64,000 bases of DNA. It comes from Phapecoctavirus DIJ07P2. Positions 12,106 through 50,021 of this stretch are shown here, in pieces. Where the stretch lies: the sequence record OZ035771.1; one strand, written 5' to 3'. Every line of letters starts with the position of its first letter. Position 1 is the stretch's first letter. The position numbers were made by a program, and so were the translations under genes. The notes under the pieces are model-generated. The model was not told where the DNA came from and searched no databases. It saw only the letters and a program-made list of their open reading frames with translations.

Positions 12106-12108
12106 TAC

Positions 12109-12137: not shown

Positions 12138-12161
12138 TATGAATATTAACAAGAGAGGTAG

Positions 12162-12455: not shown

Positions 12456-12467
12456 GAGGAGAACAAA

Positions 12468-13108: not shown

Positions 13109-13110
13109 AT

Positions 13111-13287: not shown

Positions 13288-13298
13288 TAGGGGGTAAT

Positions 13299-13550: not shown

Positions 13551-13551
13551 T

Positions 13552-13890
13552 ATGTTTAGTAAAGAGATGAGAGACGTAATTGCCACTCTGGTAGTTGATC
13601 ATGGTGTTGAAGTTGAGCGTCACGTTTGGAAAGATGAGCCTCCTTTCTTTGATTTGGCATCACGGGCTAAAAGTCACATGTATCTCCTTGAAGACGATAA
13701 GGATTTTATTCTGCGTATGCGTTATGATCGAGAGTTTAGAATTCCTCTTGACACAGATCCTGATGATGTAGTATTGTGGTTGGCAGAGCATTTCGCATTT
13801 AACGCTCTACACGGAAGAAGTTTTGGTAATGAACGTTGGGATACCATTTGTCGTAAACATAATATTGAACCAGAATACGGGAGTCTTTAA
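13552..13890 (+). CDS. Hypothetical protein (112 aa)
   Basis: ORF in operon. Confidence 0.5.
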   Translation: MFSKEMRDVIATLVVDHGVEVERHVWKDEPPFFDLASRAKSHMYLLEDDKDFILRMRYDREFRIPLDTDPDDVVLWLAEHFAFNALHGRSFGNERWDTICRKHNIEPEYGSL

Positions 13891-18607: not shown

Positions 18608-18655
18608 AATGAGAAGAGTTCTCATATGGAAATGCAAATGATAATGATTCGCATT
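18608..18655. promoter_or_regulatory. Fur-box-like palindromic operator candidates (AATGAGAAGAGTTCTCAT; AATGATAATGATTCGCATT)
   Basis: Resemble the 19-bp Fur consensus GATAATGATAATCATTATC as recalled. Confidence 0.35.
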
Positions 18656-18693
18656 TAGGTTTATAAATGAGATTGATTCTTATTTGATAAGGT

Positions 18694-18714
18694 AAATGAT
18701 AATCATTCTCATTT
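18694..18714. promoter_or_regulatory. Fur-box-like operator candidate (AAATGATAATCATTCTCATTT)
   Basis: About 15 of 19 positions match the Fur consensus by eye; shares ATCATTCTCAT core with sites at 28963 and 29141. Confidence 0.4.
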
Positions 18715-19348: not shown

Positions 19349-19407
19349 TTGACGTTCGCCAGGTGGCGGCATAATATTTACCACGTAGGGCGGCAATGGT
19401 GCCGCTC
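19349..19407 (+). promoter_or_regulatory. Promoter + 5' stem-loop cassette (-35 TTGACG, -10 TAATAT, hairpin GCGGC-AATGGT-GCCGC)
   Basis: 17-nt spacer; hairpin starts a few nt after predicted +1. Confidence 0.55.
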
Positions 19408-19426
19408 ATTATTTGGAATTAAGATC

Positions 19427-19624
19427 ATGGCAACATTGCACATTGTGGCGAAAGCTGGACAAATCAACGTAGTAGTAAACGGTTTTACTGAGTTCAGTCA
19501 TCCCCAGGATGATCATGAAACGGTTTTATCTTTCATTGATTCACTGTTAGAAATGGGAGTCATTACAGAAGACCAGCACGCTACAAAATGCAAACGCGTT
19601 AATCAGATTGCAGGAATAGAATAA
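19427..19624 (+). CDS. Small hypothetical protein (65 aa)
   Basis: First ATG downstream of cassette hairpin; track start at 19349 lies upstream of the promoter. Confidence 0.5.
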   Translation: MATLHIVAKAGQINVVVNGFTEFSHPQDDHETVLSFIDSLLEMGVITEDQHATKCKRVNQIAGIE

Positions 19625-19630
19625 AAAGTA

Positions 19631-19689
19631 TTGACAACAACCAACAACCTGATAAGATGTATCACATAAGGCGGGAAATGGTTTCCCGC
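19631..19689 (+). promoter_or_regulatory. Promoter + 5' stem-loop cassette (TTGACA, TGnTAAGAT, GCGGGAA..TTCCCGC)
   Basis: Extended -10; hairpin followed by ACAACAGAAGAGAG RBS region. Confidence 0.55.
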
Positions 19690-19713
19690 TCACAACAGAA
19701 GAGAGAAATCATC

Positions 19714-19986
19714 ATGGCATCATATAGCGCAACAATGATCGTAGCTGGTACCACTGGTAAACCTATGAGCGGTGGCGGATCTTTCGCTAATATTAATATT
19801 GATGGGCGTTTATCCCTGGACGCAGCGATCACCGTGGCGCGGGAAACATTTAAGAAAGAATGTGATTTCAACAAGCAAGATTATTTAGGTTTTGCTATTG
19901 AAAAAACGGCGCGTTTTGTTGATTATAAAAGTCCGAAAATGGTTGATACTACACTAAAAGCGCAAGATGTAGCCTTTTTGCTTTAA
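19714..19986 (+). CDS. Small hypothetical protein (90 aa)
   Basis: ATG (MASYSATMIV) after cassette and AGAGAG RBS. Confidence 0.5.
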   Translation: MASYSATMIVAGTTGKPMSGGGSFANINIDGRLSLDAAITVARETFKKECDFNKQDYLGFAIEKTARFVDYKSPKMVDTTLKAQDVAFLL

Positions 19987-19989
19987 GGC

Positions 19990-20045
19990 TTGACATTAAC
20001 GAATAATTTGTTAATATGTTACATAAAGCGGGAACTATTCCCGCT
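19990..20045 (+). promoter_or_regulatory. Promoter + 5' stem-loop cassette (TTGACA, TAATAT, AGCGGGAA..TTCCCGCT)
   Basis: Same architecture as other cassettes. Confidence 0.5.
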
Positions 20046-20062
20046 ATTTGTAAGGTGGTAGA

Positions 20063-20320
20063 ATGTTTTACATCAAATTAAAAGGTCACGTGATCGCGTT
20101 CAAGGATAACGCTTTTTACAGATTAGCAAAATATGCGTTAATACATCCCCATTATGTTTATATAAGGGGGCGTGATGAAATAAATATCTTTGATCAAACA
20201 ACATGCGAGAACATCGAGATCCGCAAGGTTGGCGTACGTGACTATCGTACATCTTTCTACCCTTGCAAGGATTCAGCAAGTCTTTTTAAAGTATGCCAAT
20301 TGTTGAAAAAAGGTGGTTAA
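20063..20320 (+). CDS. Small hypothetical protein (85 aa)
   Basis: AAGGTGG RBS. Confidence 0.5.
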   Translation: MFYIKLKGHVIAFKDNAFYRLAKYALIHPHYVYIRGRDEINIFDQTTCENIEIRKVGVRDYRTSFYPCKDSASLFKVCQLLKKGG

Positions 20321-20321
20321 T

Positions 20322-20879
20322 ATGGGCCGCGAATATGTGATCCAGTCTTGGGTAAAACATGAAGCAGATGATCCGCGCATCATTCCTGATTATCTTGTCG
20401 ATGAATCCACGGGCTATAGCGGGGAGCAAATAGGTAACAGATTAGCACGTAGTAACGGCAACGTAAAAGCGCGTTATGTGCGCCCTGGCTGGCTGGCAAA
20501 TGGTAACGCTGATTTATCCAGTGCGGAAGATGCGAGCGACGGCGCGAAAGATAATCCTTTGTACAAAGTTGATCCGGCTTTTCGTGTCCTGGATGAATAC
20601 CCCAGCAAGATAGCGGCGCTCGATCAGGCCCTGGAAAGTAAGCGCATCACCTGGACCGCTTACAACATGGCAAAAAACGTACTTGATGGTAAATTGATTC
20701 AAGCTGAAAGAAAATTAGCCAAAATTGCAGCCATAGCCCAGGAGGAAGACGAGGAGACAACGGAAGAGGAAGAGTACGAAGAGATCCCGCCGTTGTTGTG
20801 TGTTGATGCTTTTCCTGATTATCAGCCGACAGAGGAAGAAAAAAGGATCGCACTAGAAAACTTTGAAAATAGTCTTTGA
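20322..20879 (+). CDS. Hypothetical protein with acidic C-terminal tail (185 aa)
   Basis: ATG after AAAAGGTGG RBS; C-terminus EEDEETTEEEEYEE. Confidence 0.5.
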   Translation: MGREYVIQSWVKHEADDPRIIPDYLVDESTGYSGEQIGNRLARSNGNVKARYVRPGWLANGNADLSSAEDASDGAKDNPLYKVDPAFRVLDEYPSKIAALDQALESKRITWTAYNMAKNVLDGKLIQAERKLAKIAAIAQEEDEETTEEEEYEEIPPLLCVDAFPDYQPTEEEKRIALENFENSL

Positions 20880-20932
20880 CATATCGCCGCCACTGGCATA
20901 ATATTTACCACGTAGGGCGGCAATGGTGCCGC
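20876..20932 (+). promoter_or_regulatory. Promoter + 5' stem-loop cassette (TTGACA, TAATAT, GGCGGC-AATGGT-GCCGC)
   Basis: Near-identical to cassette at 19349. Confidence 0.55.
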
Positions 20933-20962
20933 TCATAGTGAAATTATGCAAGAGGCTTACAA

Positions 20963-21058
20963 TGATTAATAAAGGAAATAGCTTGACGGTTGGAACGATT
21001 AACGCTATCATTCTCGCCGTTCCATTTTGGGTTGTAGTAGCGGCTATTATTTTCTAAA
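20963..21058 (+). CDS. Micro-ORF, hydrophobic peptide (31 aa), self-derived
   Basis: AAGAGG RBS 6 nt before ATG; MINKGNSLTVGTINAIILAVPFWVVVAAIIF. Confidence 0.4.
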
Positions 21059-21066
21059 AAATATTC

Positions 21067-21127
21067 TTGACAACGTTTTTTAATCTGATAAGATGTATCA
21101 CATAGGGCGGCGGAATACTTCCCCGCC
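21067..21127 (+). promoter_or_regulatory. Promoter + 5' stem-loop cassette (TTGACA, TGATAAGAT, GGGCGGCGGAA..TTCCCCGCC)
   Basis: Conserved block TAAGATGTATCACATAGGGCGG. Confidence 0.55.
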
Positions 21128-21148
21128 AAAACAAAAAAGGGTAACACA

Positions 21149-21511
21149 ATGAGCAAGCAAATCAATACTATCATGTTTAATCTGGTATCTTTCCGCGATG
21201 ATATGAAAAATTTACCACGTGAAACGGTTGATATTCATGTTTCAGCTTATCGCGCCCTTATTGACATGTTACCGCTAAAACGTGATCAACATGCCGCTAA
21301 TATGATGCTTAATGCTATGCTTAAAAAGATGATTCAAACGGATCTCACCCTGGCATATGAGTATCAAGGGCGCTTATATGCAAATTACAACAGAGCGGTA
21401 CCTGGTCTGGGAAGTACTGAAGAGTTGCACGGCTTAAACCTGGATCAAAACACTTGGGATAGTATGCGCCGCGTTATGGTATGGGCCGAAAGCGGTAAAA
21501 TTTACGAATAA
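21149..21511 (+). CDS. Small hypothetical protein (120 aa)
   Basis: ORF after cassette. Confidence 0.5.
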   Translation: MSKQINTIMFNLVSFRDDMKNLPRETVDIHVSAYRALIDMLPLKRDQHAANMMLNAMLKKMIQTDLTLAYEYQGRLYANYNRAVPGLGSTEELHGLNLDQNTWDSMRRVMVWAESGKIYE

Positions 21512-21517
21512 AAACGG

Positions 21518-21575
21518 TTGACACTGTTTTTTATTCTGGTATAGTTTATCACGTAGGGCGGCAATGGTGCCGCCA
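21518..21575 (+). promoter_or_regulatory. Promoter + 5' stem-loop cassette (TTGACA, TATAGT, GGCGGC-AATGGT-GCCGCC)
   Basis: Same architecture. Confidence 0.5.
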
Positions 21576-21594
21576 ACAATAAAAGGTTAACATC

Positions 21595-21774
21595 ATGACC
21601 ATCATTGCAAAAACTGAGATTATAGGTTTAGATTCGATCCTCCTGGCTTATGAGGAAACTTTAAAAATGTATGTAGTGACCTATGGTGATTATGTGCGTG
21701 AATACGAATACATTGATCTTGCTTTCGAATGTTACATTCGCCAGGTCAATAAAGCCTATAACGATTATCGTTAA
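21595..21774 (+). CDS. Small hypothetical protein (59 aa), self-derived
   Basis: ATG after AAAAGG RBS; MTIIAKTEIIGLDSILLAYEETLKMYVVTYGDYVREYEYIDLAFECYIRQVNKAYNDYR. Confidence 0.45.
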   Translation: MTIIAKTEIIGLDSILLAYEETLKMYVVTYGDYVREYEYIDLAFECYIRQVNKAYNDYR

Positions 21775-21793
21775 AAGTTTTAGTCTTATACTA

Positions 21794-21846
21794 TTGACAA
21801 TGAGTGATAGTATAAGCATAATAACTTTTATCGGGAATACTTCCCA
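21794..21846 (+). promoter_or_regulatory. Promoter + imperfect 5' stem-loop cassette (TTGACA, CATAAT)
   Basis: Hairpin CGGGAA-TAC-TTCCC(A) degenerate. Confidence 0.45.
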
Positions 21847-21870
21847 CTAACCAAAAAAGAGAGTAATATC

Positions 21871-22236
21871 ATGGCTATTAATATCAATGTTTCCTCTTAT
21901 GCTACCCTGGCTGACACGGCTAAAATTGAATTATCCAGCATTGAGGCGGTGCATATTAGCGCCCGTCGTTGGTTTCAACAGTCCTACGGTAACACATATT
22001 TTTCTTTAATGGTTGACGTTGAGATCGGCGGTAAACTGATCGAGGTGGTTAACGTTCCGTTTCAATATGGTTATGGTGATCATTTTGATACCGTCGCCCT
22101 GGAAGAATTTAGCAAGGTTATTAATATGGAAGGTAAAGAGTTTTCACGCGGCGCGTATCTTTCCCGTTTTTGCCGTGATAATGGGATCACTGTATACAGT
22201 CATGCGAGCGATGTTAAACGTAAAAAAGATTTATAA
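21871..22236 (+). CDS. Small hypothetical protein (121 aa)
   Basis: ORF after cassette; N-terminus MAINI shared with 22744 ORF. Confidence 0.5.
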   Translation: MAININVSSYATLADTAKIELSSIEAVHISARRWFQQSYGNTYFSLMVDVEIGGKLIEVVNVPFQYGYGDHFDTVALEEFSKVINMEGKEFSRGAYLSRFCRDNGITVYSHASDVKRKKDL

Positions 22237-22243
22237 AAAGCAT

Positions 22244-22302
22244 TGACAGCACGAATAAAAAGAGTAAACTGTATTACATAGAGAGCGGGAACACTTCCCG
22301 CC
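22244..22302 (+). promoter_or_regulatory. Promoter + 5' stem-loop cassette (TTGACA, TAAACT, GCGGGAA..TTCCCGCC)
   Basis: Conserved block TAAACTGTATTACATAG. Confidence 0.5.
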
Positions 22303-22326
22303 TCACTGAAAAAAGAGATTAACATC

Positions 22327-22566
22327 ATGGCTAAATCAAAAATGTTCTTAGGTCACAAAAATAAAACTCATTGGAATGTAAGCCTTTGGATTAATAACGA
22401 TGAATCGTTATATCGGTTGGCGAAAGAATTTATCGCCGCTAATACTAATCGTAATGATGCTGCCCGTGATATGATGTTATTCCTGGAACAAACTGGACAA
22501 GATAAAACTCCAGACGGTTTCAAGTATAGCACTACAGCGATCCGCGCCGCGATGGTTGGAATGTAA
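22327..22566 (+). CDS. Small hypothetical protein (79 aa)
   Basis: ORF after cassette. Confidence 0.5.
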   Translation: MAKSKMFLGHKNKTHWNVSLWINNDESLYRLAKEFIAANTNRNDAARDMMLFLEQTGQDKTPDGFKYSTTAIRAAMVGM

Positions 22567-22661
22567 AGGAGATATAAAAATGAAACATCGTTCTACCTAT
22601 CTAACAAAACGTTTTAGCTTAGATCATAAATTGGGCTATTACGGAAGAAATAGAAAATAAT

Positions 22662-22721
22662 TTGACAACGTTTAAAATTAGTGTAAGATGTATCACATAG
22701 GGCGGGAAGTGGTTTCCCGCC
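22662..22721 (+). promoter_or_regulatory. Promoter + 5' stem-loop cassette (TTGACA, TAAGAT, GGGCGGGAA..TTCCCGCC)
   Basis: Same architecture. Confidence 0.55.
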
Positions 22722-22743
22722 AACAACAGAGAGATTAAAGATT

Positions 22744-22971
22744 ATGGCTATCAATATTGTTCGCGTATCCGGCACCGTTGGCACTTCCCAAGTTATTGCA
22801 GTTGTAACAAACAAAAAGATTAATGATGTATGTGAAAGCTTGAATAAGTGGGCTATTGTTAATTTTGGGGAATATGCAAGCGTCGAGTACATCGAATCCT
22901 ACCAGGTGCCAACCATCAGCCTAACCGATCTCAACGTTGATCGCTTGTTGTGCCTGGATGAATTAATCTGA
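22744..22971 (+). CDS. Small hypothetical protein (75 aa)
   Basis: ORF after cassette. Confidence 0.5.
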   Translation: MAINIVRVSGTVGTSQVIAVVTNKKINDVCESLNKWAIVNFGEYASVEYIESYQVPTISLTDLNVDRLLCLDELI

Positions 22972-22982
22972 AAAAAGATTGT

Positions 22983-23037
22983 TGACACCGGAAAGAAAAA
23001 GAGTAGAATATATTACATAGGGCGGCAATGGTGCCGC
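22983..23037 (+). promoter_or_regulatory. Promoter + 5' stem-loop cassette (TTGACA, TAGAAT, GGCGGC-AATGGT-GCCGC)
   Basis: Same architecture. Confidence 0.55.
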
Positions 23038-23062
23038 TCACAACAGAAGAGAGATTATCACG

Positions 23063-23278
23063 ATGGCTAATATCCGCACTTTACTGAAAAATGCAAGTCA
23101 AGTTTTATTTTCAGATGATGAGTATTTCAATAAAGACATTACAGGCGTGAAAAATTTAAAAGACGTGAAGGATGTTATCGGTATTCGTGGATCTTTACGT
23201 AAAGGTGACTACTATGGTAACAAGGTGCAATATAAACTGTCAAAGGATTACAATTTTACTTTGACAATTATTTCATAA
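23063..23278 (+). CDS. Small hypothetical protein (71 aa)
   Basis: ORF after cassette. Confidence 0.5.
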   Translation: MANIRTLLKNASQVLFSDDEYFNKDITGVKNLKDVKDVIGIRGSLRKGDYYGNKVQYKLSKDYNFTLTIIS

Positions 23279-23283
23279 AACCG

Positions 23284-23345
23284 CTTGCAATACTGCAAAA
23301 ATAAAGTAAACTGTATTCATCAAGGCGGTGGAATAGCCAACCGCC
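23284..23345 (+). promoter_or_regulatory. Promoter + 5' stem-loop cassette (CTTGCA, TAAACT, GGCGG..CCGCC)
   Basis: Weaker -35; hairpin retained. Confidence 0.45.
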
Positions 23346-23369
23346 TAACAAAGAGAAGAGGAAAACATC

Positions 23370-23537
23370 ATGATCACTTTCGCTACCCGTGAAGCCGCTC
23401 GCAACGTTGCACGTAAAGTTAACGCCGCCAACCTGGGCGCTACGCTTAAAGCTCCGGTAAAAGATGAATCAGGCAAATGGATCTTCCCTGGTCTGCGTCA
23501 TGCTGACAAGTTAGGTACTTTAAGCCTTAAAAAATAA
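23370..23537 (+). CDS. Small basic protein (55 aa), self-derived
   Basis: GAGAAGAGG RBS; MITFATREAARNVARKVNAANLGATLKAPVKDESGKWIFPGLRHADKLGTLSLKK. Confidence 0.45.
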   Translation: MITFATREAARNVARKVNAANLGATLKAPVKDESGKWIFPGLRHADKLGTLSLKK

Positions 23538-23540
23538 TCG

Positions 23541-23580
23541 TTGACTTTTCGTTATAGCGCCTTACAATGGGCGCTATAGA
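23541..23580 (+). promoter_or_regulatory. Promoter variant (TTGACT, TTACAAT) with hairpin AGCGCC..GGCGCT overlapping the -10
   Basis: Differs from canonical cassette in that the stem-loop spans the -10 element. Confidence 0.4.
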
Positions 23581-23612
23581 GAAGAGAAACCACTACTAAC
23601 AAGGAAACCATT

Positions 23613-23834
23613 ATGATCACTTTCGCTATTGTCGCCGTTGTTGCTGGTCAAGTTTACGTAAATGAGACATTTACTACAGAAGACAAGGCAGCAGGAGATA
23701 TAACCGCCGTTTACAATGAGTGCAAGGCAGTAGAAAGGATGTTAGCGCCTTGTATGCTAATGAGTGAACGCCAGGACGGAATAACAGTATTTACTAACAT
23801 TGGAACAGGGTACCAAATGGTAGTAACAAAATAA
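23613..23834 (+). CDS. Small membrane-anchored protein (73 aa)
   Basis: N-terminal hydrophobic MITFAIVAVVAGQVYV. Confidence 0.5.
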   Translation: MITFAIVAVVAGQVYVNETFTTEDKAAGDITAVYNECKAVERMLAPCMLMSERQDGITVFTNIGTGYQMVVTK

Positions 23835-23837
23835 AGC

Positions 23838-23895
23838 TTGACACCGATTTAATTTTTAGTAAACTGTTACACGTAGGGCGGGAATAGTTCCCGCT
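23838..23895 (+). promoter_or_regulatory. Promoter + 5' stem-loop cassette (TTGACA, TAAACT, GGGCGGGAA..TTCCCGC)
   Basis: Same architecture. Confidence 0.55.
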
Positions 23896-23913
23896 CAAAA
23901 AGAGAGAAAGATC

Positions 23914-24267
23914 ATGAAAGCACAAAATGCAATTAAAGAGTACATCCTTGCCGCTATCGGTTTTAATGATTACGGTATTACAACAGAAAAAGAGAAGATC
24001 GCGGAATTGATGCGCCGTTTTAATTCCGAGTACTGGTACCCTGATAACCAATCACGTTTTAATTATAGTATTGTTAAAGCACTTGCATCATGGTTACAAG
24101 GTTTGCCATCAGATATTAATATCGCTTTCGAATATTGGGAAGTGGATCGCTTGTTAACATCCTGGGGATACATTAAAGAGAATAGCAGCGATGATAAAAT
24201 CCAACGAGAAAGGGAAAATTATTGGCTTTATATTGCAGGCGTGATCCTTGCTTGCTCTTATGAATGA
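23914..24267 (+). CDS. Small hypothetical protein (117 aa)
   Basis: ORF after cassette. Confidence 0.5.
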   Translation: MKAQNAIKEYILAAIGFNDYGITTEKEKIAELMRRFNSEYWYPDNQSRFNYSIVKALASWLQGLPSDINIAFEYWEVDRLLTSWGYIKENSSDDKIQRERENYWLYIAGVILACSYE

Positions 24268-24273
24268 TAAACC

Positions 24274-24328
24274 TTGACAATTTTACAAAACAGTTTAAAT
24301 TAACAATATAGCGGCAATGGTGCCGCTC
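24274..24328 (+). promoter_or_regulatory. Promoter + 5' stem-loop cassette (TTGACA, hairpin AGCGGC-AATGGT-GCCGCT)
   Basis: -10 less clear (TTTAAAT/TAACAAT). Confidence 0.45.
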
Positions 24329-24346
24329 ATATAAAGAGGAAACAAA

Positions 24347-24493
24347 ATGAATACATCTAATCGCGCAGAAAAAATTCAATCTTCCAAGATCCGCAAGGCC
24401 TGGAACGAGGAAGTGATCCGCAAAGGCGACAAGCGTAATAAAACAAAGCGCGGGAAGAGTGACAAATATAATTGGATGGATTTAGAGGATTAA
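24347..24493 (+). CDS. Small basic protein (48 aa), self-derived
   Basis: AAAGAGG RBS; MNTSNRAEKIQSSKIRKAWNEEVIRKGDKRNKTKRGKSDKYNWMDLED. Confidence 0.45.
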   Translation: MNTSNRAEKIQSSKIRKAWNEEVIRKGDKRNKTKRGKSDKYNWMDLED

Positions 24494-24500
24494 CATAACA

Positions 24501-24527
24501 AGGGCGCACCAAGCGCCCTTTCTTTTT
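24501..24527 (+). terminator. Intrinsic terminator (AGGGCGC-ACCAA-GCGCCCT + TTTCTTTTT)
   Basis: GC stem followed by T-tract directly after stop at 24493. Confidence 0.65.
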
Positions 24528-24548
24528 ATATGCAGAGGATAAACAAAG

Positions 24549-24734
24549 ATGACTTTAAACGAGCTTAAAACAGCCTACAACGCAACATTAAAAATAGCCG
24601 TGCGTTACCGTGATGCGTATGGTTTTATCGCGCAGGGCGTGATCCTGGGCTTTTCTGACGATGGTTTGATCTATGTTGATGCACATCACAACAAGGTTAA
24701 ACCTGAAAACGTCATTAATATAAAATATCTTTAA
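24549..24734 (+). CDS. Small hypothetical protein (61 aa)
   Basis: ORF after terminator, no cassette upstream. Confidence 0.4.
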   Translation: MTLNELKTAYNATLKIAVRYRDAYGFIAQGVILGFSDDGLIYVDAHHNKVKPENVINIKYL

Positions 24735-24740
24735 AAATGG

Positions 24741-24800
24741 TTGACACCATAACCGGACCTGTTAAACTGTATTACATCAGGCGGGGAATAGTTCCCCACC
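24741..24800 (+). promoter_or_regulatory. Promoter + 5' stem-loop cassette (TTGACA, TAAACT, GCGGGGAA..TTCCCCAC)
   Basis: Same architecture. Confidence 0.55.
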
Positions 24801-24819
24801 ATACAAAAAGGTAAATATT

Positions 24820-25026
24820 ATGATCACCGCAAAACAAGAAAAAATCATTATCGACGTTGCAGCCGTTGCCGCTATCGCTATTATTGGATCTTATTATGAT
24901 ACCCGTTTCCCGTCGGCTATGCATGAGGTCGCCGCCGTTGCATCAGTTGGCGTACTGTTTTACGTTGGTAAACGCTATTTATCACCAATGATTAACAAGC
25001 TGACACCGTGGAAAAATAAAGGTTGA
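24820..25026 (+). CDS. Small membrane protein (68 aa)
   Basis: Hydrophobic IIIDVAAVAAIAIIGSYY and VAAVASVGVLFYVG segments. Confidence 0.5.
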   Translation: MITAKQEKIIIDVAAVAAIAIIGSYYDTRFPSAMHEVAAVASVGVLFYVGKRYLSPMINKLTPWKNKG

Positions 25027-25078
25027 TCCTGTTTTACATTATGTTATAGTTATCGTGTAGGGCGGCAATGGTGCCGCG
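25023..25078 (+). promoter_or_regulatory. Promoter + 5' stem-loop cassette (TTGATC, TATAGT, GGCGGC-AATGGT-GCCGC)
   Basis: Same architecture; track ORF start at 25068 falls inside the hairpin. Confidence 0.5.
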
Positions 25079-25097
25079 CCCCTTTGAGGATGCAATC

Positions 25098-25382
25098 ATG
25101 AGTAAAGCTAACACCGTGCTAATGTTTTCCCTGATTAATGATCTCGCTTACTTGTCCAACATGACGCAGGAGGGTAACACATTAACGGCAACATTCACCA
25201 ATAAGCTTGACCGAGTGATCATCGTCTCACTGAAAACAGTTAGTAAAGGCTTTTACTTGTTAGCTTATCATTGTATCACTGATACCGATGAGACAAGCCA
25301 GGACTATAGCGCCCCTTTCCCTGAATCAATGGCACGGGAGATCATCGCCGCCGTTGTAAATGATGGTTTGTTTACTGCATAA
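25098..25382 (+). CDS. Small hypothetical protein (94 aa)
   Basis: Start moved to ATG (MSKANTVL) downstream of hairpin. Confidence 0.5.
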   Translation: MSKANTVLMFSLINDLAYLSNMTQEGNTLTATFTNKLDRVIIVSLKTVSKGFYLLAYHCITDTDETSQDYSAPFPESMAREIIAAVVNDGLFTA

Positions 25383-25400
25383 AATAATTTAGAAAAAGGC

Positions 25401-25460
25401 TTGCAATCATTTTGAGATAGTGTATATTTAATTCATAGGGCGGCGGGAATAGTTCCCAAA
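25401..25460 (+). promoter_or_regulatory. Promoter + imperfect 5' stem-loop cassette (TTGCAA, TATATT)
   Basis: Hairpin GGGCGGCGGGAATAGTTCCC degenerate. Confidence 0.4.
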
Positions 25461-25480
25461 GCAAACGAGAGGATTACACG

Positions 25481-25600
25481 ATGAGCAAGTACACAGTAGA
25501 ATACACGGTAGAGAATCCGGCAGTATCCGAAGGTAAAAAGATGACATTTACCATCAGTATAATCGCTTTCGTTGTCACTATCTTATCAATCATCTTATAA
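25481..25600 (+). CDS. Micro-ORF, single-pass membrane peptide (39 aa), self-derived
   Basis: GAGAGG RBS; MSKYTVEYTVENPAVSEGKKMTFTISIIAFVVTILSIIL. Confidence 0.4.
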   Translation: MSKYTVEYTVENPAVSEGKKMTFTISIIAFVVTILSIIL

Positions 25601-25610
25601 GGTGCACACC

Positions 25611-25772
25611 ATGAAAACAACAGATATTATCAAAGAGATCGCCCTTGCCGCTGGCGTTGAGATCGAGGAAGTGATCGCGCTCAATCTTACAGAAAACGAT
25701 CTGCGCAACTATGAAGCGGAAAGCGTGAAAGCAAGTGGCGCGGTCCTGGCATATAATCCGGCTAACAAATAG
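25611..25772 (+). CDS. Small hypothetical protein (53 aa)
   Basis: ATG (MKTTDIIKEI) after AAGGTG RBS. Confidence 0.45.
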   Translation: MKTTDIIKEIALAAGVEIEEVIALNLTENDLRNYEAESVKASGAVLAYNPANK

Positions 25773-25773
25773 T

Positions 25774-25830
25774 TTGACAAGCTGAATCAACCTGATAAGA
25801 TGTATCACATAGGGGCGACAAGCGCCCCGC
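25774..25830 (+). promoter_or_regulatory. Promoter + 5' stem-loop cassette (TTGACA, TGATAAGAT, GGGGCG-ACAA-GCGCCCC)
   Basis: Same architecture with different hairpin sequence. Confidence 0.55.
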
Positions 25831-25849
25831 CTAACAGAGAGATAGAATC

Positions 25850-26128
25850 ATGACCATCGCCAAATTATCCGCCGAAGAAATCGAACAAGTGCTAACTACT
25901 AACCTGGAACAATGGAAACGTGAGGCAGATATACAATCAGCACAATGGCTTAACGAGAAGTTAACACCGGATGATCTGAGTAAGATTATAGATCCTCAAT
26001 TCTACGAAGATATTCACGACACCGTTTTAAGCGTCGAGGATGTACTTGATAAGCATTATATTGCTACTGATTTGCAGGTTTACGGGCGTAAAAACTTTAT
26101 TACTATTCACGACATTTACAATAACTAA
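25850..26128 (+). CDS. Small hypothetical protein (92 aa)
   Basis: ORF after cassette. Confidence 0.5.
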   Translation: MTIAKLSAEEIEQVLTTNLEQWKREADIQSAQWLNEKLTPDDLSKIIDPQFYEDIHDTVLSVEDVLDKHYIATDLQVYGRKNFITIHDIYNN

Positions 26129-26136
26129 GGGATAAC

Positions 26137-26265
26137 ATGAATCCGAAAGATATGCAAGCATGGAAAGGGTACGACGATCTAAGCGCCTTGCGCAATAAGT
26201 CAAGCCGTAACCTTAGACGGTTAGAAGCAAAGAAAAAGAAAAAACAGTTTGACAAGTCCGCTTAA
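26137..26265 (+). CDS. Small basic protein (42 aa), self-derived
   Basis: MNPKDMQAWKGYDDLSALRNKSSRNLRRLEAKKKKKQFDKSA; 3' end overlaps next cassette -35. Confidence 0.35.
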   Translation: MNPKDMQAWKGYDDLSALRNKSSRNLRRLEAKKKKKQFDKSA

Positions 26266-26306
26266 TCTGGTAAAGTGTATCTCGTAGGGCGGCAATGATG
26301 CCGCTC
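26249..26306 (+). promoter_or_regulatory. Promoter + 5' stem-loop cassette (TTGACA, TAAAGT, GGCGGC-AATGAT-GCCGC)
   Basis: Same architecture. Confidence 0.55.
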
Positions 26307-26325
26307 ACAAGAAGAGAGAAAAATC

Positions 26326-26610
26326 ATGAAGATCACAAAAAGCCTAACTAATTATGCAGCACGTCGCGGATTATGCTTAACCGTTGAAAACTCAGGGAAA
26401 GAAGACTTTTTGTGTTTTTGGGAGCTTGAAAATGATTGCGAGTGGATGTTTTCTTATTCTATCTGCGAAGATCAAAACGGTTGTTTGTTAACCTGGCGCG
26501 GTAATATCTATTTACCGGAAGAAATTAAAGAAGAGTTACCAGGTACGATCATGACAGAGAGACAGCTTAAGGAAGTGATCAATTTTGTAGGGCAAAACAT
26601 TAAAAAATAA
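26326..26610 (+). CDS. Small hypothetical protein (94 aa)
   Basis: ORF after cassette. Confidence 0.5.
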   Translation: MKITKSLTNYAARRGLCLTVENSGKEDFLCFWELENDCEWMFSYSICEDQNGCLLTWRGNIYLPEEIKEELPGTIMTERQLKEVINFVGQNIKK

Positions 26611-26611
26611 T

Positions 26612-26674
26612 TTGACAGCACGCAAACAACGTAGTAAAGTTTACCACATAGGGCGGCGGAATGGTCCACCGCTC
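26612..26674 (+). promoter_or_regulatory. Promoter + 5' stem-loop cassette (TTGACA, TAAAGT, GGGCGGCGGAATGGTCCACCGCTC)
   Basis: Same architecture. Confidence 0.5.
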
Positions 26675-26695
26675 ACAACAGAAGAGAAACAAATC

Positions 26696-26866
26696 ATGAT
26701 CCCGACTATGTTTTATGTATCGCGCAAAGGTCACAATATTTTTTGGTCTGAAGATTTAAATGAAGCCATGACGTTTGCCCGTGATCGTGTTGCTATCGGT
26801 GGCGTTAACATCACCGTAACCGATGAAAATGGCATTGAATACTATAACGGCGACGATGAAGAGTAA
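26696..26866 (+). CDS. Small hypothetical protein (56 aa)
   Basis: Start moved to ATG (MIPTMFYVS) downstream of hairpin. Confidence 0.45.
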   Translation: MIPTMFYVSRKGHNIFWSEDLNEAMTFARDRVAIGGVNITVTDENGIEYYNGDDEE

Positions 26867-26931
26867 TTAATAAGGCGGGGAATACTTCCCGCCACGCAGT
26901 GAATTTTCCGTTTGGGAAGTAAAAAATAAAT

Positions 26932-26993
26932 CTTGACGATAATTTGTTATCTGATAGAATGTATTTCGTAGGGCGGGGCAATAAGGCAAGCCC
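26932..26993 (+). promoter_or_regulatory. Promoter + 5' stem-loop cassette (TTGACG, TAGAAT, GGGC..GCCC)
   Basis: Same architecture; a second hairpin (GCGGGGAATACTTCCCGCC) sits just upstream at 26875-26895. Confidence 0.5.
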
Positions 26994-27937: not shown

Positions 27938-27952
27938 TCGACAACAAAACAA

Positions 27953-27979
27953 GGGGCGCACAAAGCGCCCTTTCTTTTT
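27953..27979 (+). terminator. Intrinsic terminator (GGGCGC-ACAAA-GCGCCC + TTTCTTTTT)
   Basis: GC stem plus T-tract after stop at 27937. Confidence 0.65.
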
Positions 27980-27989
27980 GCCCGAACAA

Positions 27990-28900
27990 TGTTGATAGCT
28001 TTCGCCTATGAAAAACCGACACAGAACAAAACTGAATAAATCGCGGTATCGAGCTAATCAACCAGCAAACGAATAACCATACCTCCCAGGGTTACAGGCT
28101 GTTAGAGAGCCATTTAGAGCGGTTAAAATCGATCAACAACCAACAACAAACCATCAAAAACACCCTTTTACCTCCTTTCTAGTGCAATGATAACCATTAT
28201 CATCTACCCATGATTATCTATGCAATATAAGCGCATAATTATAATGTTGATAATAGTTCGCAACAACTAACCAACAAACAACATAAAACAATAAGCAAAC
28301 TAATCATAATCAAAGGAATAATAGCAAGATGATTGATAACGACAAACAATCGAACCATGATGAATACTAAGCAAGATAACGATAACACGACAAAACAACC
28401 AACTAACGAACAATAACAAACGAAACCATTAAAATAATAACTATTAGCAAAATAGTGCCTGAATGAAATCATTACAAAACGAATCATTCACAGAGTCATC
28501 ATTAGCACGCTATGCCGGACACATAGCGAGCTAATAATAAGCCAACTACACCCCAACAATCATAACCATCGGTGACGGTTATTTCTTGTTACTGCGTAGC
28601 TTGCAATAATTGCAAGCGTAATGACGCTTACACTTATTGCGCTGGCTTATTATTAGCATTATATGTAATTACCAAGATCATAACATTAGCGCAATAACAA
28701 TAGTCATTGTAATAATTACATGAGTTATCACTATCGTTCAGTGTGATCATCATTAGCACAGTGAATAATTGCACGTAGCAACATGAGCGAATAGCGACAG
28801 GTTGCATAGTGTGCACATAGTGTATAAACATACAAGAAAATAAAGGCTAATCTTTTGGGGGCGAATACTATCGCGTAGCGATATGTTGAGCACCTTCTCT
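27990..28900. other. Non-coding region with strong A+C strand skew, GATAA-type hexamers and palindromes
   Basis: Plus strand dominated by A/C (e.g. CAACAACCAACAACAAACCATCAAAAACACC); palindromes TGATAACCATTATCA (28188-28202) and CTTGCAATAATTGCAAG (28600-28616); no convincing ORF. Confidence 0.5.
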
Positions 28901-28962
28901 TAAACGTAAATAAAATCAGAAAATTCTTGATTTATTTTAGTTTTTATGTTAATAAACGTTTA

Positions 28963-28980
28963 AATAATAATCATTCTCAT
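28963..28980. promoter_or_regulatory. Fur-box-like operator candidate (AATAATAATCATTCTCAT) followed by TATAAATA
   Basis: Shares ATCATTCTCAT core with 18694 site. Confidence 0.35.
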
Positions 28981-29140
28981 ATAAATAATAGTCTGCTTGT
29001 CATGAGCGGGATTAGTTGACAATGTTCCGTCATATGATGAAGTTGCCAAGCCATTGATAAATAAGTGTTTGTGTGATTTATAATCAGGTGGCCCACCTTG
29101 TCGCTATGTTGGCATGAGCCTTGCATAAGTCATTGAATAC

Positions 29141-29161
29141 GAATGATAATTATTCTCATTC
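29141..29161. promoter_or_regulatory. Fur-box-like palindromic operator candidate (GAATGATAATTATTCTCATTC)
   Basis: Near-palindrome; matches Fur consensus at most positions by eye. Confidence 0.4.
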
Positions 29162-29501
29162 GCATGATATTTGGGAATTGTCGCTGCGTGGACCTGACGG
29201 CCCGAAAATTCGCGTTAAGCACTTCTTACGTATACGCCATGATTTTTGCCATATGATATTGATTCTATTAGATATTCTTGCCATTATTGCCATGAAACAT
29301 GGTGTCCCGAAATAATCTCTCCCCGTAGATATTTTGGGTTACTTTTTATACAAGAGTGGGGTGTCAAAAATAATCAGTATATATGGGATAATTGATAGGA
29401 ATCCCCTATGATAATTCGATTGTAATTCCCTAAGATTGATCGTATGATGTTGGTGATTGATGATTGCCATGAAAGATGGCTAACGATGAGAGGAGATTGT
29501 C

Positions 29502-30358: not shown

Positions 30359-30370
30359 AGGTTGTGTGCA

Positions 30371-30610
30371 ATGATCACACCACAACAGAATGAAGCAGCA
30401 ATGGATCTTCTTGATAGTTTGTATTTCGATAATTGGTACTCTGAATGTGAATGGATGAATATGCAAACTCTGAAAGAGAAGACAAAAGCGTTGATTACAG
30501 TAGATCAATTTCTTGCAGAGACGGAAAGAATGAATTATGATATGGCATCTCGCGCACGACGCGTTTCCATTTTCAATAAAATGTTAGCATTATGGGGAGG
30601 TAGAAAATGA
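30371..30610 (+). CDS. Hypothetical protein (79 aa)
   Basis: Start at ATG (MITPQQ). Confidence 0.5.
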   Translation: MITPQQNEAAMDLLDSLYFDNWYSECEWMNMQTLKEKTKALITVDQFLAETERMNYDMASRARRVSIFNKMLALWGGRK

Positions 30611-30834
30611 GACAATTCACTATACTGGAAGCACATGTGCAATGTGTTGCAGATTATGTCAAAGAACATTCAAGTTTGTTGGATGTAACCTGTGCAGTGC
30701 AAAATGATGTAGGTATTGTCTGTGTGCAACATATCCTATCTGAAACTCGTTACGAAGTATTCCGTGCTACCTTGTTTGGATGTGATCGTGTGAACTGGGT
30801 AAAAGAACGTGTAGCAGAAGAAATAATTGGTTGA
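30607..30834 (+). CDS. Hypothetical protein (75 aa)
   Basis: ATGA-coupled ORF. Confidence 0.5.
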   Translation: MRQFTILEAHVQCVADYVKEHSSLLDVTCAVQNDVGIVCVQHILSETRYEVFRATLFGCDRVNWVKERVAEEIIG

Positions 30835-32203: not shown

Positions 32204-32215
32204 ATAATAAATACC

Positions 32216-32244
32216 TTGACAAGTGTTTATTCGTTTTGTAAAGT
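32216..32244 (+). promoter_or_regulatory. Sigma70-type promoter (TTGACA, 17 nt, TAAAGT)
   Basis: Precedes the recombinase gene. Confidence 0.45.
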
Positions 32245-32273
32245 GAGAATACAGCAATGGTTTAGGAGTGGTT

Positions 32274-32945
32274 ATGAAAAAGTTTGTTGTTTACAGTCGT
32301 CTTTCTAAACAGAAAAAAGGTGAGGCACAATATGGTATGGAGAGCCAAGAGAACGATATCCGTTACTTCTTAGACTCTGTGCCTGATGCTGAAGTTATTG
32401 GTCAATTTTCTGAATACTATTCGGGTAAGGGCGATTGGAAGCAACGTAAGGAACTGGTTAAAGCGGTTGAAATGTGTAAAGCTACCGGAGCAACTTTATT
32501 GGTAGCTAAAGTTGACCGCTTGGGTCGTAACAACGCATCCGTAGCAACTCTTCTAGAAATGATTGATGTTAAGATAGCCATCATGCCAGACGCAGATAAA
32601 ATGGTTATACAGCTTCTGTCTGTTCTGGCTGAACAAGAAGTTAGAGGTATTGCTGATCGTATTAAAAAGGGTCTTGCTGTAGCAAAAAGCAAAGGTGTTT
32701 TATTAGGCAGTGCTAATCCTAAAACTGCTGCTGCACGTAGAAAAGGAAAAATGGAATACAATTCTGTTAAAGCAGACGCTTTTGCAGAGACATTTCGTGA
32801 ACGCTTGGAGATCCTTAGAGATTTAAATACACCTTACAAAACTATTGCTGAAAAATTCAATAGTAAGAAAATAGCAACAGCACGTGGTGGTAAATGGGAT
32901 GCTAAAACTGTTTCTCGTTTGTGTGCCAGACTTAACATTAAATAG
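32274..32945 (+). CDS. Serine recombinase (resolvase/invertase family)
   Basis: YSRLS N-terminal motif, LVAKVDRLGRN, AEQEVRGIADRIKKGLAVAKSKG match resolvase catalytic-domain motifs as recalled; C-terminal HTH-like region. Confidence 0.65.
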   Translation: MKKFVVYSRLSKQKKGEAQYGMESQENDIRYFLDSVPDAEVIGQFSEYYSGKGDWKQRKELVKAVEMCKATGATLLVAKVDRLGRNNASVATLLEMIDVKIAIMPDADKMVIQLLSVLAEQEVRGIADRIKKGLAVAKSKGVLLGSANPKTAAARRKGKMEYNSVKADAFAETFRERLEILRDLNTPYKTIAEKFNSKKIATARGGKWDAKTVSRLCARLNIK

Positions 32946-32953
32946 GAGAGGAT

Positions 32954-33376
32954 ATGAAACAAGAAAATGAATCTGTAGATCACTTAATCATGCTGTCAGC
33001 CCTTTTTGCCGGATGGGACGTATTTTTTGAAAATTTATTCAATTCTGCTACAGATGGTTCCGATTTTATGCGGCAGTTTAAACGACGAACTGTTGAGGAC
33101 TATGCTTTCTATTCAGGTCGGATTGAAAAAGGTTACGAAGATACAAATACAACACTCACCATTAAAGTTTTAGATGTGATGTTTAGTGTTATAGATGCTA
33201 TCGACGAAAGTCTTCCGATCCTAGACAATTGTAATACGAAAGCCTATGTTTACAAAATAGCTCGTGCTTATGTGTCTGCAAACAGTTGTCTTCTTTCCAC
33301 CCAGATTGCCGTGAACAATCTTGCCAACTTGTTTGACGAAGGAGAAACTTTTTATGACAATCGATTTGAAGTGTAA
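32954..33376 (+). CDS. Hypothetical protein (140 aa)
   Basis: ORF with GGAGAGG RBS. Confidence 0.5.
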   Translation: MKQENESVDHLIMLSALFAGWDVFFENLFNSATDGSDFMRQFKRRTVEDYAFYSGRIEKGYEDTNTTLTIKVLDVMFSVIDAIDESLPILDNCNTKAYVYKIARAYVSANSCLLSTQIAVNNLANLFDEGETFYDNRFEV

Positions 33377-33719
33377 GAGGATTCTTTTAGATTTCTATAA
33401 TAATTGGTTAGAACACCTCCGTCTCTTTCCAAGAGAAAGTGGTTACGCTGATGTTGGCTTATGCCGAGGTCTGCGTATGTATATAAGTGATGAATTTCGG
33501 GCCGAGCATTCTTTAGCATATTCTGTTTATGGTATGCAATTAGCCAGTTTTGAAAACGCTGGCTTAGATACAACTTTCCCATTTAACACAGCAAAATCTT
33601 TTGAGCAAGAGTGTAAGGAAAAACGTTGCATGTTTAATGAAAAACGTGTACAGTGGGTTAAGGATCGAGTTAAACAACTGGAACAAGAGTTGGATTTCTT
33701 TTATGACGAGGCAGAATAA
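33354..33719 (+). CDS. Hypothetical protein, paralog family member B (121 aa)
   Basis: Start at MTIDLK after AAGGAG; contains GLCRGL, GLDTTFPFN, RVQWVKDRV. Confidence 0.5.
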   Translation: MTIDLKCKRILLDFYNNWLEHLRLFPRESGYADVGLCRGLRMYISDEFRAEHSLAYSVYGMQLASFENAGLDTTFPFNTAKSFEQECKEKRCMFNEKRVQWVKDRVKQLEQELDFFYDEAE

Positions 33720-34658: not shown

Positions 34659-35019
34659 ATGTATTACACTGAAGACTACATATTGTATAACTTTTTTAAA
34701 GGCTGGTTGAAATGGGCTGAACAAGCTCCTGTCGGAGATTGTGTTTTTCCTTGGGATTCTCGTCAAGGTTTGTGTCGTTGTTTGGAAGATTGGCTTATAA
34801 CCACAAACTACAACTCAGAAACTAAGAAATCTACATCACAGAGACTAAAAAATGTTATTTGAAGAAGATGGTTTAGATCCGATTTATCCTTTCGGTGAGG
34901 AAAGTTTCCACAATGGTCTTTTCCTTGGCACTCAACATTATGATAAAGATCGTGTAGATTGGGTAAAAGAAAAGGTAGCACAGTATGAATGGGGGTTAAG
35001 AATTATCACCGCTGGTTAG
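34659..35019 (+). pseudogene. Paralog family member C with +1 frameshift (possible pseudogene, programmed shift or sequence error)
   Basis: Frame 0 encodes ...GLCRCLEDW... to stop at 34862; +1 frame from 34861 encodes GLDPIYPFG...DRVDWVKEKV, the conserved C-terminal half; A6 run near junction. Confidence 0.45.
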
Positions 35020-35956: not shown

Positions 35957-36053
35957 TTAATAGATGGTAGATAGATGATCATAGTTTATCTACCTTCACT
36001 TACGTTTCATACCTCACTATCGTGAGTAACATGAAACATTATTATATAGAAAT

Positions 36054-36116
36054 CTACTACTCGCTATCGCTCGTAAACATATGTTTAGGGTACCATATTT
36101 TTTTGAAAAAGTCAAT
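36054..36116. repeat. Intergenic repeat copy 2 (ACTCGCTATCGCTCG ... TTAGGGTACCATATTTTTTTGAAAAAGTCAA)
   Basis: Near-identical to 10308-10370, same orientation. Confidence 0.6.
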
Positions 36117-36249
36117 GCTGATTCACCTATCAATTATCTGTTTAAGATAAGTCTTACCTATCAATCTAAGTCTTAACTAGTATTGCACCTATAGTAAGAC
36201 TATTCCTATAGTTATTAACCCTCTTCTTCTGTAGAATGTAATTAGATCC

Positions 36250-36278
36250 TTGACAAACTCACAAAACTTGTGTTACAT
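36250..36278 (+). promoter_or_regulatory. Sigma70-type promoter (TTGACA, 17 nt, TTACAT)
   Basis: Precedes ORF at 36317 with AGGAGG RBS. Confidence 0.45.
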
Positions 36279-36316
36279 TGTGTCTCACAGGTGAATAATA
36301 CCGAACAGGAGGAAGA

Positions 36317-39391: not shown

Positions 39392-39460
39392 GCTAGAACC
39401 CACCTAAATCAAACAGAGACGCTCTAAAATAGGAAAGGCACCCAAGTGGGTGCCTTTATT

Positions 39461-49773: not shown

Positions 49774-49783
49774 AATCCCTCCT

Positions 49784-49810
49784 TAAAAATACTCCCTCCG
49801 AGAAGGGAGT
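49784..49810 (-). terminator. Putative minus-strand terminator (ACTCCCT..AGGGAGT + T-tract)
   Basis: Hairpin followed on minus strand by ATTTTTAA and GGAGGG RBS. Confidence 0.45.
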
Positions 49811-50021
49811 ATAAGTATATCACGTAGTTGTTATGTTGTCTTCTTGGATACCAGAATCCACTTCTGCAAACATATCTTCTGCACTGTAATTATTTCCAGT
49901 CCAGCGTGATAGAAGGATAGCACCAATCTCTTTTGCATGAGATTCAGACTCCGCATAAACGTTAGTCCCAGTGTCACCTTTTTCTTTTCATGTGCATAAA
50001 TGCAGTAATAATTGTAAGCCA

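Follow-up and report, generated by a model that had tools for sequence, protein, structure and literature searches.

We analysed a stretch of 64,000 nucleotides (nt) of Phapecoctavirus DIJ07P2 (OZ035771.1; hereafter the window, in which positions are counted from the first letter) that carries a serine recombinase gene on the plus strand at 32274..32945. The open reading frame (ORF) begins with ATG at 32274, ends with a TAG stop codon at 32943-32945 and encodes 223 amino acids (aa). A ribosome-binding site (RBS), AGGAG, can be read from the sequence at 32264..32268 (plus strand), 5 nt 5' of the ATG, and a consensus scan placed a sigma70-like promoter, TTGACA-17-TAAAGT, at 32216..32244 on the same strand (10 of 12 positions). 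The first-pass annotation of this DNA had described a 223-aa ORF with serine recombinase motifs and its own promoter in a virulent-phage context; its coordinates, length and motifs proved correct (matches to PF00239 and PHROG 125, see below), and the promoter is promoter-like by sequence. Because sigma70-like matches are not enriched across the region (22 observed vs. 18.5 expected), the promoter assignment stands on consensus-level evidence alone. A weak 26-bp dyad (32206..32231, not assigned to a strand), self-complementary at 18 of 26 positions, is centred on the -35 box and would at most be a candidate for an operator or a single recombination site. The next ORF downstream begins 8 nt past the recombinase stop codon.

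The window runs from an anaerobic ribonucleotide reductase gene through a block of small early rightward ORFs (~12.1-39.4 kb) to a leftward nucleotide-metabolism block. Phapecoctavirus genomes (Stephanstirmvirinae), among them ukendt, EF1-1, ESCO5 and nieznany, match it at 98-99% identity, in agreement with the virulent-phage context; such genomes, for example ukendt and EF1-1, are those of ~150-kb Escherichia coli myoviruses that are lytic by description (PMC10269720, PMC10282059). The window sequence itself shows no anomaly, and the gene is already annotated in public records, where it is labelled 'DNA invertase', 'serine recombinase', 'putative site-specific recombinase' or 'hypothetical protein'; phi92 gp053 and phAPEC8 gp216, among others, already bear the label 'site-specific recombinase / DNA invertase'. 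An earlier guess is that the recombinase keeps concatemers monomeric (PMC10282059).

Catalytic and DNA-binding domains

The catalytic domain with helix E (aa 1-146; 32274..32711, plus strand) was delimited from invariant residues, an AlphaFold2 (AF2) model and Foldseek, and includes the TCT codon of the nucleophile Ser11 at 32304-32306 (plus strand). The protein matched Pfam PF00239 (Resolvase) with 66 bits against a cut-off of 23.3 (E = 5.2 × 10−18), with aa 5-142 aligned to profile positions 2-144 of 145, and the same profile was matched by all 55 members of the recombinase family. The best phage family was PHROG 125 'DNA invertase' (E = 2.6 × 10−32), followed by PHROG 95 'integrase' (E = 7.6 × 10−22). 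The motifs Y7-x-R9-x-S11, D81-R82-L-G-R85 and a helix E with E120 were recognised; in alignments of 21 and 55 homologues, extending down to 29% identity, Y7, R9, S11, Q25, R58, D81, R82 and R85 are invariant, and E120 is invariant or almost so. S11, the catalytic serine on which the first-pass annotation hinged, is thus present in every one of the 55 aligned sequences. D81-R82-L-G-R85 and helix E can be aligned to Tn3 and gamma-delta resolvase, the latter of which has the active-site residues R8, D67, R68 and R71. The AF2 model, built from the 55-sequence alignment, has a mean pLDDT of 89.9 and a helix at residues 109-139, and in Foldseek it matched the catalytic domains of Sin, gamma-delta resolvase and TP901-1 integrase (E = 5 × 10−7 to 1 × 10−5), as well as the Bxb1 catalytic domain and IS607-type TnpA. 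By sequence and predicted structure, the gene encodes a bona fide serine recombinase with intact catalytic residues and fold, and the well-conserved enzyme is apparently active.

The C-terminal helical DNA-binding domain (aa 147-223; 32712..32942, plus strand) is of the large serine recombinase (LSR) 'Recombinase' helix-turn-helix (HTH) type and has the motif TARGG-x-W. In the AF2 model these 77 residues form four short helices, after which the protein ends. PF07508 gave a weak match in the query at aa 187-216 (E = 0.003, profile positions 19-48 of 102) and was matched by 25 of the 55 family members (E down to 5.9 × 10−6), and the 'Recombinase-like HTH' PF20552 (HTH_62) was matched by 2 of the 55; HTH_7 (PF02796) was matched neither by the query nor by any of the 55 relatives. 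The longest Foldseek alignments were to complete LSRs, the best full-length alignment being to Bxb1 integrase (9iu2_A, 259 columns). Both the profile matches and the model identify the DNA-binding domain as a truncated LSR-type 'Recombinase' HTH that ends before the zinc ribbon and coiled coil. By its size and its intact set of catalytic residues the protein is the small serine recombinase that had been annotated, but the designation 'resolvase/invertase-type' does not hold in the strict sense, given a PF07508-like HTH in place of the HTH_7 of Tn3/Hin-type enzymes. The protein has the Recombinase-type HTH after helix E that characterises LSRs, and at 223 aa it has neither their size (at least 400 aa) nor the full recombinase domain, zinc ribbon and coiled coil. 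Nor is its layout that of IS607-type enzymes, in which an N-terminal MerR-like HTH comes ahead of the catalytic domain; here the catalytic domain begins as early as residue 5 and is followed, not preceded, by the DNA-binding domain. None of the named NCBIfam families (YneB-like resolvase, Mpi master invertase, XisF, CcrB) reached its curated cut-off, the best scores being 32.5 bits against 175 for YneB and 22.6 against 272 for Mpi, and the recombinase had no match among PADLOC and anti-defence families.

Comparison with known systems sets the enzyme apart from each of them. The LSRs (Bxb1, phiC31, TP901-1, A118) resemble it in the catalytic domain, helix E and the first 'Recombinase' helices, whereas the phage enzyme, with its 223 aa, lacks the zinc ribbon and coiled coil and is associated with neither attP/attB nor lysogeny. 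Tn3/gamma-delta resolvase and Sin share with it the catalytic sequence, the fold and a similar size (PDB matches 5cy1, 1gdt and 2r0q); the catalytic-domain identity is, however, ~20-28%, and the phage gene has no HTH_7, no multi-subsite res beside it and no transposon. Gin (Mu), Cin (P1), Pin (e14) and Hin are likewise small serine recombinases encoded by phages, and the best PHROG is named 'DNA invertase', but the gene studied here has no flanking inverted crossover sites, adjacent invertible segment or tail-fibre linkage, its DNA-binding domain is of a different type, and its phage is virulent rather than temperate.

Closer relatives in architecture were found outside virulent phages. A profile search against 1.84 billion representatives returned 3,797 clusters at E ≤ 1 × 10−30, and all 150 of the top 150 matches span the whole profile (positions ~2-219), most of these proteins having 214-240 aa. 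Homologues with the same architecture are present on 114 plasmids, mostly small and non-mobilisable. On the Sphingopyxis plasmid pSM103mini (4.3 kb), the homologue WP_013302501.1 directly precedes and overlaps repA; BLASTP aligned it to the window protein with 32% identity over aa 1-221 (E = 1 × 10−21), and TARGG-x-W...TV is shared. The ~220-230-aa 'recombinase family proteins' of plasmids and prophages thus agree with the window protein in length, full-length collinearity, catalytic motifs and C-terminal HTH, and differ in context, which for them is a 4-kb plasmid beside repA or the ends of prophages and here is a 150-kb virulent phage. Judged by these alignments, the window protein belongs to a large, uncharacterised ~220-aa LSR-like clade. 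Two prophage homologues (L012/L013, 6001-6777, and L014, 8001-8705; 43% and 37% identical) lie directly after baseplate/tail genes, and one of the prophages bearing a homologue also carries a separate large serine integrase. These prophage positions hint that some members of the clade may be tail-fibre invertases; a search for invertible segments beside the prophage homologues found no convincing flanking inverted repeats.

Distribution, domain divergence and genomic position

Using tblastn, we found the protein in 162 phage records. In 62 of these it is at least 99% identical, which comprises essentially every phAPEC8-type Phapecoctavirus, and in dozens of Phapecoctavirus records it is 100% identical to the window protein. 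Identity falls to 74-80% in other Phapecoctavirus species, ~57% in Justusliebigvirus (phi92 gp053), 55% in Klebsiella Stephanstirmvirinae, 35-38% in Vibrio and Shewanella phages and 30% in some ICP1 isolates; scattered homologues also occur in Bacteroides phages. Orthologues of other non-structural genes span 39-87% identity (DNA polymerase, 58%); the 57% of the Justusliebigvirus recombinase falls inside these limits and therefore fits long retention in the subfamily rather than recent acquisition. Three 'Campylobacter phage' records of 146,366 bp, MG065639 (A150), MG065689 (A110a) and MG065656 (C3), contain phi92-type sequence with a recombinase match (56.9% identity, E = 9 × 10−76, 253 bits by tblastn) equal to that of phi92, and by sequence they look like mislabelled or contaminant Justusliebigvirus genomes.

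Comparison of the window gene with those of ukendt and nieznany shows 11 nucleotide differences in each case, all of them synonymous. Relative to phiWec186 (locus 4001-4675), the first 146 codons are 82.6% identical at the DNA level, with 62 of the 76 differences at third positions and 7 residues changed. At the protein level the same comparison reveals a domain-level mosaic, with 95% identity in the catalytic domain and 36% in the DNA-binding domain, and the recognition helix of the window protein resembles that of phi92 more than it resembles that of its congener phiWec186. These substitution patterns indicate that the catalytic domain is under strong purifying selection and that the C-terminal DNA-binding domain has diverged fast or has been swapped. 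In Schickermooser (MK373788, 401-1050) the 5' half of the gene is interrupted by six small indels (1-7 nt), and the annotation there covers just a C-terminal ORF of 128 aa; either a dispensable gene is decaying in this isolate or the sequence contains local errors. The gene of phAPEC8 is intact.

The gene occupies different loci in sister genera. In Phapecoctavirus (the window and phiWec186) it lies in the early rightward block, after the homologue of phi92 gp013 (Tk.3-like); phi92 and Klebsiella phage phi1_175008 carry it in a leftward block, between the gp054 and gp052 homologues and ~1 kb upstream of a Ser/Thr phosphatase gene. The corresponding 'empty site' is found in the window, where the gp054 and gp052 homologues are adjacent and separated by a 46-nt gap (49775-49820). 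In all four contexts (window, phiWec186, phi92 and phi1_175008), TTGAC(A/T)-17-(TAAAGT/TAAAAT/CATACT) directly precedes the gene, and it was therefore the promoter together with the gene that relocated. The flanks of the gene contain no repeats or att-like sequences, and the spare DNA downstream amounts to just 8-10 nt. The contrast between a constrained catalytic and a fast-diverging C-terminal domain, the LSR-type HTH, the presence of promoter plus gene at a different locus in sister genera, and the same-architecture relatives on small plasmids and prophages are, as far as the sequence comparisons go, the new elements of this analysis.

About 3 kb to the left of the gene, the noncoding sequence at 28889-29430 aligns collinearly, at 76% identity, with the left end of phi92, whose annotated 343-bp direct terminal repeat is included; collinearity with the phi92 left end extends more generally over window positions 27950-29500. 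From this similarity, the physical terminus or terminal repeat of this Phapecoctavirus probably lies at 28889-29430.

Repeats, dyads and rearrangements

Enzymes of the annotated type normally act on paired res or inversion sites, and the first-pass annotation had noted no obvious inverted repeats near the gene. Repeat finding in the window yielded only early promoter-plus-hairpin modules, terminators and a repeat pair at 10.3 and 36.1 kb, and a dyad scan of the window (13+2+13 bp, at least 11 of 13) yielded only the terminator at 39432-39459, both of which bear out that observation. To cover a whole genome, we compared ukendt, a complete 151-kb genome of a close relative, with itself by megablast and blastn-short. 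Across this genome we detected no inverted or direct pair beyond promoter/terminator families and ~7 chance-level inverted matches, and no inverted-repeat pair of at least 24 bp beyond chance. The paired sites expected of such enzymes are thus absent from both the window and the whole ukendt genome. Short conserved DNA islands between ukendt and Justusliebigvirus VEcB consisted only of promoter-hairpin modules, Fur-like boxes, terminators and a tRNA. An Rfam search of the whole window gave no match, and no embedded cis element was found in the coding sequence, where synonymous sites vary even in the most conserved motif. Invertases have a Fis-dependent enhancer within or near the gene; at the synonymous sites of the recombinase gene no conserved DNA element is conspicuous. 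In phi92 and VEcB, a 36-bp dyad (12 of 15 per arm) is centred on the -35 box of the recombinase promoter, and each of its half-sites occurs once per genome. A 10-mer, TGTAAATAAT, common to the palindrome upstream of the pSM103mini homologue and the upstream region in the window (2 occurrences in the window vs. 0.5 expected), was taken as chance, with a corrected p of ~0.03, the wrong orientation and no conservation in phiWec186.

The 10.3/36.1-kb pair had been proposed as two 60-bp direct repeats flanking the gene at a distance. The repeats exist, at 10306-10369 and 36051-36115, with 82% identity over 66 columns, one indel, and exact or near-exact cores of 15 nt and 19 nt, but their candidacy as sites did not survive. 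The minus strand of each copy reads TTGACT-17-TACCCT, followed by a short hairpin and then the conserved leader CGAGCGATAGCGAGT; the first copy, promoter-like on the minus strand, precedes a leftward ORF, and the second, likewise promoter-like on the minus strand, is part of ~210 nt of noncoding sequence for which phiWec186 shows conservation. The hairpin palindrome differs between the copies (ACCCCGAAGGGT vs. AAACATATGTTT), neither repeat has dyad symmetry around a central dinucleotide, and a crossover between the two would remove 25.7 kb, the recombinase gene included. We therefore rejected them as res sites; by sequence they look like duplicated promoter-leader modules. Within the gap at 35957-36316, the 36-kb promoter-like copy would run antisense to the surrounding rightward genes and is possibly a promoter of a small or antisense RNA. 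A -10 block similar to that of the two repeats also occurs in VEcB.

Rearranged orientations, another expectation for such an enzyme, were not borne out: Phapecoctavirus genomes are collinear across the window, and the sole segment inverted between genera has non-homologous junctions. This ~1-kb segment (11853-12809, with flanks 11470-13890; no strand assigned) takes in the divergent promoters that separate the leftward from the rightward block, together with two small genes and the 65 codons at the start of a DUF2829-like ORF (11613-12047). It is inverted relative to its flanks in phi92, VEcB (OZ035773), alia and others, and has the window orientation in all Phapecoctavirus, in VEcB (NC_052663), W22 and outra; in phi92, gp217 is a fusion of the N-terminal 65-aa DUF2829-like module to a homologue of the window ORF 13552-13890. 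We rejected the segment as a product of the recombinase, given junctions that hold non-homologous filler and no shared dyad core, and read the junction sequences as those of an old rearrangement spread by mosaic exchange, not of active flipping.

The early region contains promoter plus GC-hairpin modules at 19349-26992 (14 strict copies, ~21 with looser ones), each with a sigma70-like promoter, a GC-rich hairpin and an RBS before a small ORF. Comparison with three relatives gave 23 boundaries of similarity blocks, 15 of them no more than 30 nt from a module where 6.9 ± 2.2 were expected; these boundaries are not independent, and ~9 of the 14 distinct ones are near a module. The modules match the PeSL cassettes of T4-type phages. 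These have no known dedicated recombinase, and the authors who described them explicitly leave open the existence of 'an active, targeted recombinase' (PMC2839356). The hairpin stems vary with compensatory changes and therefore point to an RNA-level role and to homology-driven exchange. That the recombinase is the dedicated enzyme of an integron-like cassette exchange in the hyperplastic early region of a virulent phage seems to us very improbable.

Two further families of elements recur in the window. A Fur-box-like 19-bp palindrome, AATGATAAT-N-ATTCTCATT, is present in four copies (18637-18655, 18695-18713, 28963-28981 and 29142-29160, without strand) and has 6 strand matches vs. 0.03 expected; it is near the E. 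coli Fur-box consensus (16 of 19 positions at 18692-18710), and its phi92 counterpart is TAAATGATAATCATTATCA. All four lie within the two large noncoding gaps on either side of the hyperplastic early region, an arrangement that suggests iron/Fur-responsive early control or terminal functions. A paralogous family of small early proteins (VOG7392 in ukendt), to which phi92 gp006 and gp010 are related, recurs at least five times in the rightward block on the plus strand, with the shared C-terminal motif '...RV(N/D)WVKE(R/K)VA...' (30784-30816 and 34948-34980; ORFs 30362-30610, 33354-33719, 34659-34997 and others).

Possible roles of the recombinase

Plasmid multimer resolvases and the Cre/loxP system of P1 monomerise or cyclise a replicon, and we tentatively favour a comparable role, as an early single-site recombinase on phage DNA that cyclises or monomerises the replicon, as an explanation that is possible rather than probable when taken as a whole. 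The recombinase would be expressed early by the host RNA polymerase from its own sigma70 promoter, and its substrate would be the DNA of the phage itself, with one site in each genome instead of a pair. One site per genome is suggested because no pair of similar sites is present in the genome and because the relatives of the same architecture are on plasmids; with a single site per genome, recombination would therefore take place between copies of the site carried by separate genome units, or between those at either end of the incoming DNA, in its terminal repeats. The physiological outcome would be cyclisation or monomerisation before concatemer replication. Candidates for the single site are the weak dyad over the gene's own -35 box and some part of the sequence at 28.9-29.4 kb that resembles a terminal repeat. 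The functional analogy is with Cre/loxP, in that a single site per genome is proposed to be recombined between copies or terminal redundancies; Cre, however, is a tyrosine recombinase, P1 is temperate with a plasmid prophage, and no lox-like site was identified in Phapecoctavirus.

Several points weigh against this explanation. No site has been identified, and the upstream dyads are weak. A virulent phage that packages from concatemers would have no obvious need for multimer resolution. The 36% identity of the DNA-binding domains, vs. 95% for the catalytic domains, in two Phapecoctavirus species is awkward for a conserved target in the phage. The Schickermooser indels, if real, would make the gene dispensable for plaque formation, and the resolvase role of the plasmid relatives is itself inferred from context. 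In addition, the phi92 gene lies ~19 kb from the terminus, such that proximity to the end is not conserved, and we therefore gave little weight to the proximity of the window gene to the terminal-repeat-like region.

Alternatively, the enzyme might be a weapon in a conflict, rearranging or breaking foreign DNA (host chromosome, prophage, satellite, defence island or co-infecting phage) early in infection, which we consider rather unlikely. Such an activity would be compatible with the absence of a target pair in the ukendt genome and with an early-type promoter of the gene's own among small early 'host-takeover' ORFs, and targets that change would be expected to yield just such a combination of a conserved catalytic domain with a DNA-binding domain that diverges fast or has been swapped. 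In ICP1, moreover, the gene is patchy and accessory, being confined to some isolates and to a variable region near pexA. However, the E. coli and Klebsiella phage orthologues retain similar recognition helices, no PADLOC or anti-defence family is matched, no host site is known, and literature searches gave no precedent; the ICP1 Adi/PLE literature was set aside as not relevant, Adi not being a recombinase.

A less probable alternative still is that the gene and its promoter form a selfish, moron-like cassette, which carries itself from one phage genome to another and does little for its carrier. The clean insertion of a single gene at two loci, with the 'empty site' at 49775-49820, the scatter of homologues among Vibrio, Shewanella and Bacteroides phages, and a decayed copy in one isolate are what such a cassette could leave behind. 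Yet hardly any member of either genus lacks the gene, its inter-genus divergence equals that of neighbouring backbone genes and therefore points to vertical descent after a single relocation, the downstream neighbour is 8-10 nt away with no flanking repeats or att-like sequences seen, and the coding sequence has no conserved embedded DNA element.

A classical Gin/Cin/Hin-type invertase that flips a phage segment, as in tail-fibre or promoter switching, could account for PHROG 125 'DNA invertase' as the best phage-family match, for the two prophage homologues beside baseplate/tail genes and for the occurrence of the segment at 11853-12809 in both orientations among Stephanstirmvirinae. We nevertheless find it highly unlikely: the complete ukendt genome contains no inverted-repeat pair of at least 24 bp beyond chance, the best-matching Phapecoctavirus records listed show no orientation polymorphism over the 64-kb window, the junctions of the inverted segment contain non-homologous filler with no shared dyad core, the C-terminal domain is not HTH_7, and the gene is far from the tail-fibre genes. 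A non-catalytic, sequence-specific DNA-binding regulator, or a gene on its way to loss, would fit the dyads that overlap its own -35 box and the frameshifted Schickermooser copy, but deserves as little credence in view of a nucleophile and active-site Arg/Asp residues that are strictly conserved in 55 diverse sequences and of strong purifying selection specifically on the catalytic domain. As context only, E. fergusonii becomes resistant to Phapecoctavirus Tay4 when its hyx promoter undergoes reversible inversion (bioRxiv 10.64898/2026.05.13.724931), a phase variation on the host side that is the work of a different, host-encoded invertase.

Strictly lytic phages are assumed to have no need for site-specific recombinases, and phage-therapy screens read such genes as signs of lysogeny. 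The gene described here is nonetheless kept under purifying selection in Phapecoctavirus and Justusliebigvirus, two coliphage genera that are therapeutic candidates. As a very small (223-aa) LSR-like recombinase, the enzyme might also be of use as a tool. Knowledge of its substrate would show regulators whether the gene is harmless, and may reveal an undescribed step in the DNA metabolism of large myoviruses or in the conflict between phage and host.

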